Below are positions 11 through 10,664 of a stretch of 17,560 bases of DNA, piece after piece. Position numbers and translations under genes: made by a program. The stretch is from a virus. Taxonomy: Duplodnaviria; Heunggongvirae; Uroviricota; Caudoviricetes. The notes below the pieces were generated by a model. The model did no database searches. It saw only the letters and a program-made list of their open reading frames with translations, and had not been told where the DNA came from. Each line of letters begins with the position of its first letter. The first letter of the stretch is position 1. The stretch lies in the IMG/VR virus record IMGVR_UViG_2534681831_000034. The stretch is one strand, 5' to 3'.

Positions 11-592
11 TTACCCAGCAATAGGATTAAATCTCACCGCATCCTGCAAGTAATCCGGCGCAAGATGGGCATAAATCATCGTTGTCTGAATCTTTGCGTG
101 CCCCAGAATTTTCTGGAGCGTCAGAATATTGCCGCCGTTCATCATGAAATGACTGGCGAAGGTGTGGCGCAGCGCATGAACAGCCTGGCCGTCAGGAACA
201 TCAGGTGCGACCGTTTTGATGACATCGCGAACCAATGAATAATCCAGCGTCGGAAACACCAGTTTCCCGCCCCGTTTTTTGATCTTTTCAAACAGGCTTT
301 CAGAAATAGGAACGGTACGGTTTTTGCTGTTCTTCGTTTTTGAAAAAGTGATTCGACAATGAAGAACACGGCGCTGCTCCAGTGCCGCTACCTCGCCCCA
401 TCGCGCCCCGGTCGACAGAAGGATTTCGACGGCCAGCCGTTCATCGGGATTTTCAGCCAGTGCATCCAGCAACTGAACACATTCAGACTTACTCAGATAT
501 CCCATTTCACGCTCGTTAACCTTCATTCCTTTAAGGCCTTGAACGGGGTTATCGTTAAGAAAATGGCCGGATGAGATGAGTGCGGTAAACAT
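11..592 (-). pseudogene. int: 5'-truncated P2-type tyrosine integrase (C-terminal catalytic domain only)
   Basis: The translation carries the catalytic-domain signatures of tyrosine recombinases: TGARWGEV (box A Arg), HALRHTFASHFMMNGGNILTLQKILGH and TTMIYAHL (catalytic Tyr). The frame is open only 18 codons upstream of the first Met (in-frame stop at 647-649), and no N-terminal arm or core-binding domain is found in any frame upstream. A P2-type integrase is about 337 aa; about 190 aa are present. Confidence 0.7.
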
Positions 593-953: not shown

Positions 954-3790
954 GTGAGTTTGCATGGAGCTGGAATGAACCACGACCAGCCATTGATCCG
1001 GCCAGATTTACGGAGCACAGGCAGGAAACTGAAACCGACCTGCAACGCGCCATCCGTTACTACCTTGAGGCAGACAAAAAGGCTCTGGAAGAACAGGAAG
1101 CGAAGGAGGAAGCCTTTTTCGCACAATCCACCGTGGGTAAAAAACTCATGGCATCCCTTGAGGAAGCCGGACAGCGTGAAAAGCTGGCACAGAACATCAT
1201 CAGTAAGCGTCAGGCAACAGAACAAGACCCGGTGGCCCGTGCTTTTGCCACACTGAAGGTGCTTCCCGTTTATCTGCGTGAACCTCTGAGCCGCCACCTC
1301 TCTTTCCTGCGCAAAAAACAGGAAGCCGATCGCCAGAAAGGCAAAAAGAGCTGGCAGGCTGAACGCTACGCGCGCGGAACCCTGCGCAAAATATTCGAAC
1401 GTCTGGACCGCACCGATCACCGCTGGCTGACACCGGGTTATCGCTCCCTTGCCGGACGCGAACGCCTGGACGATTTGCTTTACCTGCCGCAGCTCAACAA
1501 ACACCAGATACAGACGCTGGCCACCATGACGGCGGCGATGTTCAGCAGCACCTTCGAAAAACTCTGCGATGGCTTTGGCGCGACTGATGGCGAACTGACC
1601 ATGGATGTAACGCTGAAGGCGTATCAGATGCTGGCCCGCATGGCGTTACACCTGCACGCCATGCCTCCACATTATGACGCACTGACAACAGACAAAGACC
1701 GGAGGAACGAACCGGACACGGAGCTGCTGCCGGGCGCAATCCTTCGCCTGACCTGTGCGGAATGGTGGAAACGCAAACTGTGGCTGTTACGTTGCGAGTG
1801 GCGGGAAGAACAACTCCGCGCCGCCTGTCTGGTTTCCAGAAAAACATCGCCCTATCTGAGTCAGGACGCGTTAAGCGAGTTTCGCGCACAGCGCGAGAAA
1901 ACACGCGATTTCCTGAAAAGTTTCATGCTGGAAAATGAAGACGGGTTCACGATTGATCTCGAGACGGTGTATTACGCGGGAGTAAGTAACCCGGTTCACC
2001 GTAAGGCAGAAATGATGGCCACCATGAAGGGACTGGAACTTCTGGCCGAAGCCCGTGGCGACAGAGCGGTGTTTCTGACCGTCACCTGCCCGTCAAAATA
2101 CCACGCAACAACGGAGAACGGTCATCCGAACCCCAAATGGAACGGGGCCACCATGCGCGACTCCAGCGATTACCTGGTTAACACGTTTTTTGCGGCGGTC
2201 CGCAAAAAACTGAACCGCGACGGCCTGCGCTGGTATGGCATCCGCACGGTGGAGCCTCACCATGACGGCACTGTGCACTGGCATATGATGGTCTTTGCAC
2301 ATCCGGACGAGATTGAAACCATCGTGTCCCACGTCTGCGATATTGCCATTCAGGAGGACCGCCACGAGCTGGGCGATGACATAACTCCGCGTTTTAAGGC
2401 GGAGTATGTCGACGGCTCAAAAGGCACACCAACCAGCTACATCGCCACCTACATCGGAAAGAACCTGGACAGCCGCGCCGTGGATGGCATCGACCCGAAA
2501 ACGGGCAAGCCACGCGTTGACCACGAAACCGGAAAATCAATGGCCGAGAGCGTGGAGCGCGCCATCGGCTGGGCGCGCCTTCACCGGGTCCGTCAGTTCC
2601 AGTTCTTTGGCATCCCCTCCCGTCAGGTGTGGCGTGAACTGCGCCGCCTTGCCAGCCAGATGGCACGCAATCCGGAAGGCCCGCAACGGCTGAAAGATGA
2701 TGCAATGGATGCGGTACTCGCTGCCGCCGATGCCGGGTGTTTTGCCACCTACATTGAAAAACAGGGCGGCGTACTTGTTCCACGCAAAGACTACCTGATT
2801 CGCACCGCCTACGACCTCGCAGATGAGCTGAATGATTACGGCGAACAGAGCGTACAGATTTACGGGATCTGGTCACCACTCATCGGGGAATCCTCCCGTG
2901 TGTGCACGCATCCGGATAACTGGAAACTGGTAAGACGTAAACCGGAAACGGAAGACAGCGCCCGCGAAAATGGTTTTGACCTTCAGGGCGGCCCTGCCGC
3001 CCCTTGGACTCGTGGCAATAACTGTCCCCGTGTACAGGAAACGGACAACAACGGGGCAGAACAGCCGGAAGAACGGCCAGCACCGTGGCCGCAGCTCCCT
3101 GACGGCGTTGAAGTGAACGAATGGATGCGCTCACTGAAACGGCACGAACGCCGGGCGCTGATGCGTTCGCTTCGTGACAAACAGGCAAAAAACAGCAGTG
3201 ATGAAATGCAGAGCTGGACACAGAGCCGCAAACAGCAGCGGCCTTTGCCTGATAACCACGAATTACTCGCTAAAGAATGGCGGGAGTCTGCCGAATCTCT
3301 CGGCCTGCATATCGGTGAACAGCAGATGCAGCACCTGCTACGGGGCGGCAGCCTGTACGTTGACGGCAGCATCATTGCACCGCAGGGATATGAAATTGTA
3401 CGCAAACCGGATACCCGCCCGTACAGCCGAATCACGCAGCTCTGGCAGCACCTGAGCCGTAATCACGGCGTAAGCAGCACGGAGATCCGCCATAACCCGG
3501 TCGCCAGCTATCTGGCACAGCTGGGGGCATCAGACCCCGAAGCCGCCGCACGCCTGGCATCCGCACTTCAGCAGGATCAGAACACCATGAAAACACCCGT
3601 TACCGTGCTTTCTGACATGCTGCGCGCCATCCGCGACGCAGAGCACGCACAGAGAATCAGTGAAACCACTGAACGCGCCAGCCGCAAAGCAGACCTGCTG
3701 CAGGGTGGCCTGACCAGTGGAAACAAAAAACAGACAGAAACGGGACTCACGAATCCCGTAAATGAGCAAAAAACGCGCAGCGATATATGA
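950..3790 (+). CDS. A: phage replication initiation endonuclease, P2 gpA family (HUH rolling-circle nickase)
   Basis: Long ORF (track 923-3790). It contains an HUH-type metal-binding motif (HWHMMVF) and a paired-tyrosine motif (YIATYIGK) typical of the P2 A / phiX174 A superfamily. The start at ATG 950 is preferred over GTG 923 because of the ATGA coupling with the upstream ORF; either is possible. The protein is about 200 aa longer at the C-terminus than P2 gpA as I remember it (761 aa). Confidence 0.8.
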   Translation: MSEFAWSWNEPRPAIDPARFTEHRQETETDLQRAIRYYLEADKKALEEQEAKEEAFFAQSTVGKKLMASLEEAGQREKLAQNIISKRQATEQDPVARAFATLKVLPVYLREPLSRHLSFLRKKQEADRQKGKKSWQAERYARGTLRKIFERLDRTDHRWLTPGYRSLAGRERLDDLLYLPQLNKHQIQTLATMTAAMFSSTFEKLCDGFGATDGELTMDVTLKAYQMLARMALHLHAMPPHYDALTTDKDRRNEPDTELLPGAILRLTCAEWWKRKLWLLRCEWREEQLRAACLVSRKTSPYLSQDALSEFRAQREKTRDFLKSFMLENEDGFTIDLETVYYAGVSNPVHRKAEMMATMKGLELLAEARGDRAVFLTVTCPSKYHATTENGHPNPKWNGATMRDSSDYLVNTFFAAVRKKLNRDGLRWYGIRTVEPHHDGTVHWHMMVFAHPDEIETIVSHVCDIAIQEDRHELGDDITPRFKAEYVDGSKGTPTSYIATYIGKNLDSRAVDGIDPKTGKPRVDHETGKSMAESVERAIGWARLHRVRQFQFFGIPSRQVWRELRRLASQMARNPEGPQRLKDDAMDAVLAAADAGCFATYIEKQGGVLVPRKDYLIRTAYDLADELNDYGEQSVQIYGIWSPLIGESSRVCTHPDNWKLVRRKPETEDSARENGFDLQGGPAAPWTRGNNCPRVQETDNNGAEQPEERPAPWPQLPDGVEVNEWMRSLKRHERRALMRSLRDKQAKNSSDEMQSWTQSRKQQRPLPDNHELLAKEWRESAESLGLHIGEQQMQHLLRGGSLYVDGSIIAPQGYEIVRKPDTRPYSRITQLWQHLSRNHGVSSTEIRHNPVASYLAQLGASDPEAAARLASALQQDQNTMKTPVTVLSDMLRAIRDAEHAQRISETTERASRKADLLQGGLTSGNKKQTETGLTNPVNEQKTRSDI

Positions 3791-3835
3791 AGCGCGCACA
3801 AAACAGGCAAAAACGGGATTTCAGAATCCCGTAAA
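3738..3835. promoter_or_regulatory. two copies of a 25-bp palindromic motif (AAACGGGA-N9-TCCCGTAAA); candidate parC centromere/operator or origin element
   Basis: Read directly: copy 1 at 3738-3762 (aaacgggactcacgaatcccgtaaa) and copy 2 at 3811-3835 (aaacgggatttcagaatcccgtaaa). They differ at 4 central positions, each has internal dyad symmetry (ACGGGA/TCCCGT), and their centres are 73 bp apart. Copy 1 lies in the last codons of A; copy 2 lies in the A-parM spacer, about 30 bp upstream of the parM start. Confidence 0.45.
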
Positions 3836-3866
3836 CGATTAATTAATCAACATAAGGAAAAGCGAC

Positions 3867-4826
3867 ATGAAAATTTGTATCGACGACGGCTCCACCAACA
3901 TCAAGCTGGCATGGACTGAGAACGGCGAACGCCGCAACGCCATCAGCCCGAACAGCTTCAAGTCGGAATGGTCTGCGCCGTTCGGTGGCACGCAGCCCGC
4001 GAACTACATGCTTGATGGCGTGCGCTATGGTTTTGATCCGGTCAGCGATCGCTTTGTCCAGACGACCGACACGCAATACCAATACAGTGATGTGAATGTC
4101 ATTGCCATTCATCACGCGCTGGTCAAATCAGGCATCACGCCACAGGAGGTGGATGTGGTTGTCACCCTGCCACTGAGCGAGTATTTCGACACAAACGCAC
4201 AGCCGGACATAGCCAACATCAACCGCAAAAAAGCGAACGTTATGCGCCCGGTGGAGTACCAGAACGGCGAAGCATTCACTATCCGTAACGTGCGGGTTAT
4301 GCCTGAATCCATTCCGGCTGGCTTTAAGGCACTGGCTGACATGAGTCCGTTTGAATCCCTGCTGATTGTGGATTTGGGCGGAACCACGCTGGATGTGGCA
4401 AAGGTTCAGGGGCAGCTGGCAGGTATCAGCCAGGTGTTTTGCGATCCACACGTAGGCGTTTCCCTGATGGCTGATGCCGTGCTGTCGGTGATGGCCACTA
4501 ACGGTATGCGTACCAGTCACCACATCGCCAATACCATTATTGAGCACCGTCACGATGAAGCCTGGCTGCGCCAGCACATTCACAATGACGCGCATTACAA
4601 CAGCCTGATGGCGGTTATTCGTGAAAAGGAGGAGACACTGAAACAACGAGTGATCCGCGCGCTGGCGGGTTTTTCCGGTTACGGGCGGGTGATGGTTGTC
4701 GGTGGAGGGGCGGAGATTGTGGCACCCGCTATCCGCGAAGCCTGCGGAGTTAATGCGACTTTCATCACGGACGGGGTGCCACATTTTGCTCTGGTTAATG
4801 GGCTGTACGCAATGAACAAGGAGTAA
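3867..4826 (+). CDS. parM: ParM/StbA-family actin-like plasmid segregation ATPase
   Basis: 319 aa with the actin-fold motifs IDDGSTNIKL (phosphate 1), DLGGTTLD (phosphate 2) and VVGGGAE (adenosine). It is collinear with plasmid R1 ParM (StbA) as I remember it. An AAGGA Shine-Dalgarno lies about 9 nt upstream of the ATG. Confidence 0.8.
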   Translation: MKICIDDGSTNIKLAWTENGERRNAISPNSFKSEWSAPFGGTQPANYMLDGVRYGFDPVSDRFVQTTDTQYQYSDVNVIAIHHALVKSGITPQEVDVVVTLPLSEYFDTNAQPDIANINRKKANVMRPVEYQNGEAFTIRNVRVMPESIPAGFKALADMSPFESLLIVDLGGTTLDVAKVQGQLAGISQVFCDPHVGVSLMADAVLSVMATNGMRTSHHIANTIIEHRHDEAWLRQHIHNDAHYNSLMAVIREKEETLKQRVIRALAGFSGYGRVMVVGGGAEIVAPAIREACGVNATFITDGVPHFALVNGLYAMNKE

Positions 4827-4830
4827 ACCA

Positions 4831-5142
4831 ATGACGACACCAACCAGAAGAATAAGTTTCTATCTGAAGCCAGCTGCCGTCAAGAACGAAGGAGAAGCAT
4901 GCGCCTGGCTGGACAGCCTTACACCAGAAGCCCGCAAAAGCGGCCAACGCGTGGCTTTTCTGGCCGGGCTGGCACTTCTGAAGACGAATCCGGCAGAGGC
5001 TTACCGACTGGCCGCATGGGCTGATGATGAGATGTTACCTGTGACACAAATCAGCTCAAAAAAGTTTGAAGCACAGTCTGCACCAGTGGCTAAGATAACC
5101 AGCCAGATGGCTGGGAATATCCGGGCGTTATTTCCTGAGTAA
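4831..5142 (+). CDS. parR: ParR/StbB-like centromere-binding adaptor
   Basis: 103 aa, starting 4 nt after the parM stop with an AAGGAG Shine-Dalgarno. The N-terminal region (RRISFYLKP...LDSLTPEARKSGQRVAFLAGLALLK) resembles the ribbon-helix-helix N-terminus of R1 ParR as remembered. Gene order parM then parR matches type II partition loci. Confidence 0.6.
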   Translation: MTTPTRRISFYLKPAAVKNEGEACAWLDSLTPEARKSGQRVAFLAGLALLKTNPAEAYRLAAWADDEMLPVTQISSKKFEAQSAPVAKITSQMAGNIRALFPE

Positions 5143-5785: not shown

Positions 5786-5808
5786 AGCGCCGATAAGGCG
5801 CTTTTTTT
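5786..5808 (+). terminator. rho-independent terminator
   Basis: GC stem AGCGCC (5786-5791) / GGCGCT (5797-5802) with loop GATAA, followed by a run of seven T (5802-5808), 10 nt after the stop of the 5507-5776 ORF. Confidence 0.7.
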
Positions 5809-6893: not shown

Positions 6894-7923
6894 CATCAAG
6901 AAGAGCATAAGAATTAAAACGGATCACCTCTTCGCCAAGCCAGTCATTGATGTGCTTCATGGCCTCCATAACGGGCATCAGCTCGTTAATTGCATAAACC
7001 CGCGCGGCCTTCTCCACATCACCAAACGCACTTTTTTCGCCCGGCATCGCCCCCATCAGTTGCGGCGGAACACGGTGCGCAGCCAGCACATCATCACGGG
7101 ATGCCGCCTTAACATTCATGAACTCATCTTTTGCGGTGATCTGCTGGAACGGCAAAATTTGCACCCCCTCTTTGCCCCCGTTGGGCGCATGAATGAGCAC
7201 GTTTTTAAATGCACCACTACCACGTGCACCCTGTAATGTTTCTTTCAGGGAGTCCATGCTTTCGCGGTTTACCTGCGCTGCACCGATGTAGATGATGCAC
7301 CCGGCGTGGGATCCGTTGTCGTAATACAGTTTTCTGAACATGTCCGCCGAATGAGACAGGCTGGCCGAGAGTAATGCGCCGAGATATTCCGGCATGCCGT
7401 AGATTTCCTGGTTAATATCCGGATTCATCAGGTGGCACACTTTGCCAGGGCGAAACTGAAACGCGTCCTTGCCATCCTGCACATACCACCATGATTCAAG
7501 ATCGCTTCCGCGTCGCATGTATTTCGCCAGTGCGTGCCGTAATTTAAGCGGTTCGCCGAGCATATTGCTTCGAAGCTCAAGGTATGCGTTACCGAACACA
7601 AACCAGTCCAGCGCCAGCGCCGAGAAATCCTGCCGGGAAAGCAGCGGGTGCGGAATATAGCAGCCGAGCAATACATTGCGCTTAAAGTAAAGCGCAGACT
7701 GATGCCAGGACGTTTGCCGGGCGGCTCTTGCCAGACCGTACCAGTCCACCGGGGTTTCATACCACCGCCCGTTATCAGCACAGTACATATTGTCCAGCAA
7801 ATCATGCCCGGTCAGGCGATAAGGACCATCAAAAGTGAATGCACTGAGCGACGATTCTTTCCTGAGCGCATCAGCGAGATCAATGCGTGAACTCATGCGC
7901 ACTTTTTTATTTTTTCTGCTCAT
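6877..7923 (-). CDS. Q: portal protein, P2 gpQ family
   Basis: 348 aa, matching the length of P2 gpQ (about 344 aa) and its position immediately downstream of the terminase ATPase. Its ATG (7921-7923) overlaps the stop of the upstream gene (ATGA coupling). Confidence 0.85.
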   Translation of the reverse strand: MSRKNKKVRMSSRIDLADALRKESSLSAFTFDGPYRLTGHDLLDNMYCADNGRWYETPVDWYGLARAARQTSWHQSALYFKRNVLLGCYIPHPLLSRQDFSALALDWFVFGNAYLELRSNMLGEPLKLRHALAKYMRRGSDLESWWYVQDGKDAFQFRPGKVCHLMNPDINQEIYGMPEYLGALLSASLSHSADMFRKLYYDNGSHAGCIIYIGAAQVNRESMDSLKETLQGARGSGAFKNVLIHAPNGGKEGVQILPFQQITAKDEFMNVKAASRDDVLAAHRVPPQLMGAMPGEKSAFGDVEKAARVYAINELMPVMEAMKHINDWLGEEVIRFNSYALLDEKTAP

Positions 7924-9673
7924 CAGAACTCCATAACCGTGAAACGCTCGTTTTCTCCTTCGCCGCCAATTGGTTCGTTAATGACAGCAAGCATGGTTGC
8001 CCACGCAAGGTCGCCGTGGCTGATCCCCCTCGCGCGGTCCGTTTCGTAAGTGATAAAACCGCCCGGTGTTTTCACCTTACGCACGGCGTTAAAGGCCGCG
8101 ACCAGCTCGCGTTCGGCGCGATCGTATTCCCACCGCCCGGCACGCATTATTTGCAGCATTTTCAGTACCAGCGACCGTTTTGATGACAGCGTGAAGGTGT
8201 ACGGAATAGCAGCAGGGAAAAACCGTTTCACTATCTGATAAACAGCCTCCCCGTTCCCGCCCGTCACATCAATGCCGATGTGTTCCACGTTGTAGCGACA
8301 CGTGAACTCTTCAATGACTCTGGCCTGTTCTTCAAACTCCAGCCCCTGAACGCGTCGCGTCTCCACCGTTCGAAAACGGCCACCAGGAACAGCCGGAGGA
8401 ACCACCACAGACACAGCGCCGCTGTCGCCGTTGCCACTGCTGCCGTTTGCGTCATACCCAATCCATACCGGACGATTCCCCATCGGGCGGGGAGCAAAAG
8501 GTTTCCAGTCTTTCCAGTCGTCGTATCCGTCAACACCGCAGCCAATCAGGATATTCAGGTTAAATGCCGATTCCCCTTCGCGGACAAACTCACACATATA
8601 GAGATTGAGGAACTCGTCTTCGGTGTTTTCATCACGAATTTCGTCGATATCGGTGTGTTTCCAGCCGTGATTAACCACATCTTCCAGCGTGACAATTTGC
8701 CGCCACGTCCGGTCAGGGCAGATAAGCCCGTTATGCAGCGTATTCCAGTCCACAGAAAAACGCCGGCGTTTATGCGTGGCCTTTTTCTCGTTCCAGCGGT
8801 CGCCGTTCCAGTAGGCGTATGCCTCGTGCGTTTCGGTGGATGGCGTGGAGAAGTAGGTGCGCCGCAGTCCGCTGAGGGTTGCCATAGCGCCAGCCACCTT
8901 GCGTAGTTCAGCAAAGCGACTGACCCAGAAAAATTCATCAAAATAAAAATTGCCCGTATAGGACTGCGCCGACGCAGCAGAAGTGCCGAGAAAATGCAGC
9001 TCTGCGCCATTGGAGAGGATGATTTTATCGCCCCCTTTCAGCTCCACATCAACTTCAGCCGCAGCCTTCTGAATAATGCTTTTAAACTGGAACGCCTGAC
9101 GACGCGACGCAGACAAAAAATCTGGTTACGCTGGTAAGGTTGCGCCACATCGTCACGCAGCGCCATCAGCAGAGCTTCCTGTGCAAAATACCAGGTCGCC
9201 CCAATCTGTCGGGATTTCAGGATCATCCTGTTACGTATCCCGGCTTCCCTGCAAAGGGTCAGGGAGTCAAACCAGCCCCGCTGATGCCACTCCAGCCTGC
9301 TGATGATTTTTTCCCGCAGTGCGGAAATCTGTTCCGGCGTGAAATGATTTTTGAGTTTTTTCGCCCGGCCTTTCTTTCCTGCGGCCATCACATCCGGATG
9401 GCCATCATGCAGCTTTTTAAGCTGCCGGGTCAGCAGGTCTATTTCCTTAAAATCACCGCCTGTTTTATTCTGTTTTTCAGTAAGCTGGATGAGGCGCGCA
9501 TCGATGGACTGCGTGACACGCTGCACGGGTGGCGTTTCATCCCACTGGTCGCGTTTTTTCCACGCATAAATCGTGTTCGGGTTTATTCCCATCAGACGTG
9601 ATATTTCTGCGGGCGGATAACCCTGCCAGTAAAGTTGCCGCGCACGCTGGCGCACAAAAGCGTCCTGAATCAT
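7923..9673 (-). pseudogene. P: terminase large (ATPase) subunit, P2 gpP family, interrupted by an apparent 1-nt frameshift
   Basis: Two overlapping minus-strand ORFs (9673-9038, 211 aa, and 9116-7923, 397 aa) together span about 583 codons, close to P2 gpP (590 aa). The first ORF ends in an out-of-frame tail. The frames switch at an A6/T6 homopolymer at 9115-9120; adding one T would fuse them into one frame (..QRNQIF-LSASRRQAFQF..). Confidence 0.75.
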
Positions 9674-9827
9674 TGCTCCCCCTGAGTAATTACAGGAAGA
9701 TTACCCGCGCGCGAAACCGTTCTCCTTAACCCCCTGTTCTGGCCGTTTTCTTACAACAAAAGCCCTTTGTATCAGCCTGTTACGCTTTGCCATCATGACT
9801 GAAGAACCAGTCAGAGGGGCAAAAACT

Positions 9828-10664
9828 ATGGCTAATGAAAAAAAGACATCCCGCAAAAAGTTTCGCGTGGCTGTCTCCGGATCAACTGTTGATGGCCGTG
9901 AAATCAGTCCGGTGCATCTGCGTGAAGCCGCCGAGAACTTCAACCCGGATGTTTACGCTGCCCGCGTGAACGTTGAGCACTATCTCTCGCCATGCCCGTC
10001 AAGCGAATTTTCCGCAATGGGCGATGTCACCGCACTGAGTACGGAAGACATTACGGAAGGTCCGCTGGCCGGACGTACTGCGCTGTATGCAGAAATCGAA
10101 CCGACCGAGCGCATGAAGCAGCTTGTCGCGGACGGCAAGAAAATCTATTCCAGTATCGAACTGCACCCGCAGTTCTCCGTTAACGGGCGTGCCTATCTGG
10201 TCGGGCTGGCGATGACCGACACCCCGGCAAGCCTGGGCACTGAGCGCCTGAAATTCACGGCACAGCAACGTCAGGCGGTAATGACGTTCAACAGTGTCCA
10301 GGGTGAAGCGCCGCTTATCTCCGAAGCCATCGAGTCTGAAATCATCGAAATGGCAGAACAACGCCAGGAAGAAGGCACCCAGTGGTTTAACCGCGTAATG
10401 GGGATTATTGGCCGTGGCCGCAAAGCGGATGACGCCAGTTTTTCCCGTATTCAGGAAGCGGTGGAAGGCGTCGCAACGTCACAGGCCGACATTATCGACC
10501 GTTTTAATGTGCTGGAAACCCGCCATCAGCAGGACCGCCAGAAAATTACGTCACTGACCACAGAGCTGACAGCACTGAAGGAAAAACTGCGCACGCAGGA
10601 CGGCGATCCGCAGAACCGGTTCACCGCAACGGGCGCAGCCTCCGACCAGCTGGCTGACTTCTGA
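9828..10664 (+). CDS. O: capsid scaffolding protein, P2 gpO family
   Basis: Collinear with P2 gpO (about 284 aa) as remembered: ..RVAVSGSTVDGREIS.., ..YLVGLAMTDTPASLGTERL... ATG 9828 is preferred over the track start at 9795 because AGAGGGG lies 8 nt upstream of it. Confidence 0.85.
   Translation: MANEKKTSRKKFRVAVSGSTVDGREISPVHLREAAENFNPDVYAARVNVEHYLSPCPSSEFSAMGDVTALSTEDITEGPLAGRTALYAEIEPTERMKQLVADGKKIYSSIELHPQFSVNGRAYLVGLAMTDTPASLGTERLKFTAQQRQAVMTFNSVQGEAPLISEAIESEIIEMAEQRQEEGTQWFNRVMGIIGRGRKADDASFSRIQEAVEGVATSQADIIDRFNVLETRHQQDRQKITSLTTELTALKEKLRTQDGDPQNRFTATGAASDQLADF

Follow-up and report, generated by a model that had tools for sequence, protein, structure and literature searches.

The closest described counterparts of the gene studied here are the gpP large terminases of P2-like phages of the Xuanwuvirus type (Citrobacter phage Shae_phiSM and Escherichia phage P88; Peduoviridae), with which it shares the order of protein domains and the synteny. 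The gene of Escherichia coli DEC8B differs from them in being one base short and split, and its prophage differs in the absence of the lysogeny and early region. Frameshift pseudogenes are reportedly known from the defective prophages of EHEC strains, in the prophage pools of O157 Sakai and O111 strain 11128 that Asadulghani et al. (2009) and Ogura et al. (2009) are said to have described. The lesion resembles these pseudogenes as a single-base indel in a morphogenesis gene of an element that carries other lesions (in sister strains, IS1203 and an inserted G). Unlike them, it is found in no clone-mate and no further drift accompanies it, so that it lacks the inheritance by which a true pseudogene is usually known.

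The lesion is also similar in kind to the homopolymer under-calls of 454, Ion Torrent and uncorrected PacBio or Nanopore sequences, being the loss of one base from a seven-base A/T run in one draft only. It departs from them in that the 19.7 kb of assembly read contain only two candidate errors, one of which is also a natural polymorphism. Programmed −1 frameshift sites offer a further comparison: in P2-like phages the tail genes E/E′ reportedly contain a slippery site rich in T, TTTTTTG (a finding ascribed to Christie et al., 2002), and dnaX has A AAA AAG. In gene P six T's are likewise followed by G, and a −1 shift would restore the protein; unlike at the E/E′ and dnaX sites, the register is wrong, no stimulatory structure is predicted and the two-frame layout is not conserved. 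The lesion resembles one of two familiar things: a pseudogene of a cryptic EHEC prophage, frameshifted at a homopolymer, or a homopolymer miscall in a draft genome.

The window, by which we mean the whole stretch of 17,560 nucleotides analysed (IMG/VR record IMGVR_UViG_2534681831_000034), is 100% identical to contig AIGG01000032.1 of the E. coli DEC8B assembly (GCA_000249815.2) and ends 47 nt before the contig does. The DEC8B sequence is a 2012 draft assembly of an O111:H8 strain, isolated from a patient and carrying stx1, stx2 and eae (PMC7693793). The element is, by its sequence, a P2-like prophage of the P88/Xuanwuvirus type. It adjoins btuC, and its P DNA is 97–99% identical to the P genes of phage records. 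The features referred to below are as follows, with positions in the window.

11–592, minus strand: integrase fragment of 193 aa, with PF00589 at residues 33–178 (catalytic domain only)

5787–5808, plus strand: terminator-like hairpin GCGCC-GATAA-GGCGC followed by T7, after an 89-aa ORF; T8 in 95NR1, 11128 and the draft L004

6877–7923, minus strand: portal gene Q, intact (PF04860); its start overlaps the stop of P

7923–9673, minus strand: gene P, a large terminase of the gpP type, 1751 nt long (1752 nt in relatives) and disrupted after codon 186

7923–9116, minus strand: C-terminal ORF of P, 397 aa from the TTG at 9116; called as 374 aa from the GTG at 9047

9038–9673, minus strand: N-terminal ORF of P, 211 aa from an ATG, with the gpP HTH domain and a Walker-A-like motif; deposited as EHW14518.1

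9115–9120: homopolymer, A6 on the plus strand and T6 on the coding strand; seven bases in relatives

Against the complete phage Shae_phiSM, the window aligns at 24–190 and then only from 1271 onward. In the region missing here, Shae_phiSM carries about 10 early genes together with C, cox and an int of 335 aa; the window has lost the N-terminal portion of int and, between int and gene A (593–1270), also C, cox and all of the early operon. Because only an integrase fragment is left and C, cox and the early operon are absent, the prophage is a remnant, already defective and predicted to be unable to excise or replicate. The same prophage in strain 11128, a finished O111:H- genome, carries a different lesion, an IS1203 that cuts gene A. 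Other inactivating lesions, one of the marks of genuine decay, are found in the same prophage.

Genes Q and P lie on one strand, divergent from the genes O-N-M-L on the other, of which O-N-M form the capsid/terminase operon. Between gene A and the portal region, at 3867–5142, the window has a gene for a ParM/StbA-like actin ATPase and a Plasmid_stab_B gene, a plasmid-type partition module within an integrating P2-like phage that is present in Shae_phiSM too. Rfam and tRNA scans of the whole window gave no matches.

The two P ORFs lie in different frames and overlap at 9038–9116 in the ORF list, the coordinates that an earlier note on this DNA had given for the two halves of gpP. At the run, the plus strand reads GAC AAAAAA TCT and the coding strand AAC CAG ATT TTT TGT CTG, with six T's. 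Frame A reads ...QRNQIF and continues in a 25-aa out-of-frame tail (CLRRVV...MWS) to the stop codon at 9038–9040; frame B reads ...PDF-LSASRRQAFQFKS.... The insertion of one T in the run gives a single 1752-nt ORF of 583 aa, whose product is 100% identical to WP_000613748.1, a 'terminase large subunit' that is intact in the O111 strains 95NR1 and 11128. The proposal of the earlier note that one more T/A at 9115–9120 would fuse the frames is thereby borne out. Since one added T is enough to give this 583-aa ORF, the split, which is real in the deposited sequence, is caused by exactly a one-base difference in run length. Over the P gene there are two nucleotide differences from the clone-mates, both synonymous, and no amino-acid change on either side of the break; at the break itself, the sole difference between the window and the closest complete genome is A6 against A7.

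The Pfam domains of the repaired protein are Terminase_5 at residues 6–63 (PF06056, E = 1.8e-26), the gpP DNA-binding domain; Terminase_6N at 150–374 (PF03237, E = 2.5e-49), the ATPase domain; and Terminase_6C at 405–566 (PF17289, E = 6e-31), the RNaseH-like nuclease domain. These three domains agree with the identification of a gpP-type large terminase in the earlier note, as do their order and the position of the gene beside Q and divergent from O-N-M. One uninterrupted frame of about 583 codons, also expected of such a gene, is broken in the DEC8B record; relatives have the 583-aa ORF. A PDB sequence search with the repaired protein gave no match. By their resemblance to T4 gp17, SRQIGAT (residues 154–160) may be a Walker-A-like motif and FYFDE (residues 243–247 of the intact protein) a Walker-B-like motif. 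The break, after Phe186, falls between the two. The C-terminal ORF contains the remainder of the ATPase domain, including the Walker-B-like motif, and the nuclease domain; neither fragment is predicted to be able to work as an ATPase.

A 66-mer that includes the six-base run has no identical match in the 1110 complete E. coli records that carry this stretch, and the matches listed span 67 bases. A 36-mer with the six-base run is likewise found in none of the 1110, and real six-base runs were found at none of 1238 places in complete genomes. In the reciprocal search, the 67-mer with the seven-base run is exact in 951 of 1066 complete records; those of the remainder that were sampled differ by substitution, not by length. 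Over gene P, 66 records reach an identity of at least 99%, and every one of them has an extra base in the alignment. At the protein level, the exact 211-aa product is found on one contig only in a collection of 153 billion genes, the DEC8B contig AIGG01000032.1 itself; the exact portal protein Q is found in 4584 blocks of the assembly collection. Among the matches listed, an intact 583-aa P stands beside the exact Q in five of seven places, and at one of the other two P is called as 434 aa. Seven bases, with P in frame, are thus the usual state, and within its clone DEC8B alone has six. Comparison with orthologous P genes, which the earlier note had proposed as a check on its frame reconstruction, gave no orthologue that combines the six-base run with an intact frame.

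Outside the window, the six-base run was seen only in one other lineage and in one error-rich record. The other lineage has a different P allele, designated P0004, with the same six-base run and the same out-of-frame tail (L013, positions 3771–4406; IMGVR_UViG_2778261358_000015). It is seen on 15 contigs (NCBI, Logan and ENA) and under at least four GenBank protein accessions. L013, one of these contigs, reached by scanning viral contigs for the exact pattern, is clean apart from natural-looking variation, and at 1–1845 a 3.5-kb deletion has fused gene A with the 3′-terminal part of the portal gene; the contraction from T7 to T6 in the P0004 allele is evidently genuine. The error-rich record is the RefSeq phage NC_049343.1, exemplar of Gemsvirus gv5004652, in which the six-base run is one of seven one-base indels in 2.35 kb. 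A second RefSeq phage, NC_049341.1, exemplar of Xuanwuvirus xv503458, has eight one-base indels per 2.35 kb. Nearly all the indels in the two records are one-base deletions in short runs; they look like uncorrected sequencing errors, with a clear error signature in NC_049343.1, and because of them P is annotated in both as three 'terminase large subunit' CDS.

The gene is also broken elsewhere in the clone. The draft L004 (GCA_016553245.1), from an 11128-like O111 strain, has the normal seven-base run, but a G is inserted at its position 9908, 19 nt upstream of the run and at a site that is not a homopolymer; we read it as a separate frameshift event in the P gene of this prophage remnant. Many draft contigs (L005–L009) start inside P at nt 596–616, just downstream of the run. 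IS insertions were considered as the cause of these starts and rejected, since the N-terminal partial products end at residues 241–252 with an overlap of k-mer size; the starts look like points at which the assembly graph joined two similar prophages of a single genome.

The clone-mates used for comparison with DEC8B were three O111 genomes: 95NR1, 11128 and the draft L004. In 17.5 kb, two indels are private to DEC8B, both of them −1 contractions and 3.3 kb apart: T8 to T7 at 5802–5808 and A7 to A6 at 9115–9120. The relatives have five runs of at least seven bases in the window, and two of these five are contracted in DEC8B. Six-base runs agree with at least one clone-mate in 29 of 29 cases (28 without the P run) and five-base runs in 52 of 52. 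The contraction at 5802–5808 lies in the U-tract of the terminator, and T7 is found there in 10 of 163 complete E. coli genomes; it is a natural polymorphism.

DEC8B also has four private substitutions, all synonymous (8823, 8904, 17353 and 17359), which look inherited or recombined rather than like random error. For the two in P, at 8823 and 8904, the combination C...T occurs in three of 1083 complete genomes (B1S11, B2 and 2196); they could represent a short recombination patch from another P88-like prophage, or paralogous reads mixed in the assembly. The other two lie in the baseplate gene J, where DEC8B has GCT GCG GCG and the clone-mates have GCG GCG GCT, again synonymous, and three further differences are found in the last 47 nt of the contig (L003, positions 1–47). 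The assembly probably broke at this end, at the margin of a mosaic segment of tail genes. Just upstream of the ATG of gene O (9828), the A5 at 9821–9825 is identical in 998 of 1078 complete records; 95NR1, the closest complete genome, has A6 there and is the odd one at this site.

The P lesion is an accidental, strain-private change of homopolymer length and not a designed signal. The earlier note had offered three explanations: inactivation by mutation in a prophage undergoing decay, a sequencing error at the homopolymer and, as less likely, slippage-dependent expression. The decay of the prophage is confirmed by the losses described above, the mutation and the error are both serious candidates, and slippage is disfavoured, as the note had ranked it. 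Full-length gpP would in that case be made from the six-T run by −1 ribosomal slippage, by transcriptional slippage or under a phase-variable packaging switch, which we consider very improbable. The tRNA-Phe would slip by −1 on UUU_UUU, and such a shift (AUU UUU UGU to UUU UUG) would yield the exact wild-type NQIF-LSAS; the T-rich site of the P2-like E/E′ genes is a precedent. The X XXY YYZ heptamer U UUU UUG is, however, in register with the outgoing (target) frame, whereas the incoming codons are AUU UUU UGU. Because the heptamer is out of register with the incoming frame, tandem tRNA slippage cannot work, which leaves the run with single slippage in the P site, an inefficient process. No stimulatory RNA structure is predicted downstream: the following 93 nt have a minimum free energy of −22.9 kcal/mol, whereas their shuffles average −23.7 (z = +0.32), and 123 of 200 shuffles are at least as stable. 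Transcriptional slippage in E. coli is efficient only at runs of about 8–9 bases or more. Contingency loci have frequent on/off variants among close relatives, but such variants are absent among the 66 near-identical complete genomes and the 1238 places. With 951 of 1066 records carrying the in-frame seven-base run and none of 1110 the six-base run, the two-frame layout is not conserved either. On all these tests the split fails as a programmed frameshift and as a contingency locus. In a further variant, the T6 allele would be real but would leak: −1 slippage of tRNA-Phe in the P site at a low level, or slippage of RNA polymerase, would restore a little full-length terminase, and the T7/T6 run would act as a crude reversible packaging switch in P88-like prophages. 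The run is seen contracted in three different P alleles; we give this variant hardly any credence.

The most likely origin of the six-base run, with a probability of about 0.55, is a homopolymer under-call in the 2012 draft. In the deposited DEC8B sequence one base of the seven-T run (coding strand) is missing, translation leaves the correct frame after Phe186, and what results is an N-terminal stub of 211 aa and a C-terminal part that is untranslated or orphan; with an under-call, the actual gene would be intact, with seven T's. Alternatively, the six-base run may be real, one T having been deleted very recently by strand slippage in the DEC8B lineage or in its laboratory stock. The packaging ATPase would then have been inactivated in a prophage already unable to excise or replicate, as a further step of decay. 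We regard this as a serious contender, at somewhat less than an even chance. As expected of an artefact, the length change is limited to one assembly and absent from the clone-mates, with none of the 1110 complete records sharing it and the product found on one contig; the gene is broken without further decay, and the repaired protein is identical to that of the clone-mates. A real event would have to be extremely recent, because the amino-acid sequence is unchanged both before and after the break; the lesion is found in no relative and is neither inherited nor accompanied by relaxed substitution, and the base rate of real six-base runs is 0 in 1238 places. The chemistry of 454 sequencing under-calls long homopolymers, and the same run is contracted in the error-rich NC_049343.1. 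The same sequencing centre and laboratory used 454 Titanium reads and the Celera assembler for STEC drafts in 2012 (PMC3491183); if DEC8B was sequenced in that way too, this would fit an under-call. Both private indels of DEC8B are −1 contractions, in two of the five runs of at least seven bases, but the T7 at 5802–5808 is natural in 10 of 163 genomes, which weakens the argument from two contractions. Several observations favour a real mutation. The prophage is a remnant, cut in gene A by IS1203 in strain 11128, and because it is already dead P is not under selection, so nothing would act against a real frameshift; P has been broken independently by the inserted G in the sister draft L004, 19 nt away. 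The identical change from T7 to T6, genuine in the P0004 allele (15 contigs, three sources, in a prophage with a 3.5-kb deletion), suggests that the run is a natural hot spot. The private differences, all synonymous, speak for true divergence, and DEC8B is not simply an error-bearing copy of a clone-mate. On balance we lean to the artefact because of the very low base rate of real six-base runs, the date of the draft and the contraction of a second homopolymer.

For annotation, the DEC8B pair of 'terminase' CDS (211 and 374 aa) is one frameshifted gene, and this run cannot be relied on in other public records either, one of them the genome of a RefSeq/ICTV exemplar phage in which the terminase is annotated as three CDS. 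The biological weight of the difference is small: if it is an artefact, it would be a routine error of a 2012 draft, and if the six-base run is real, P would be one more dead gene in a prophage remnant.
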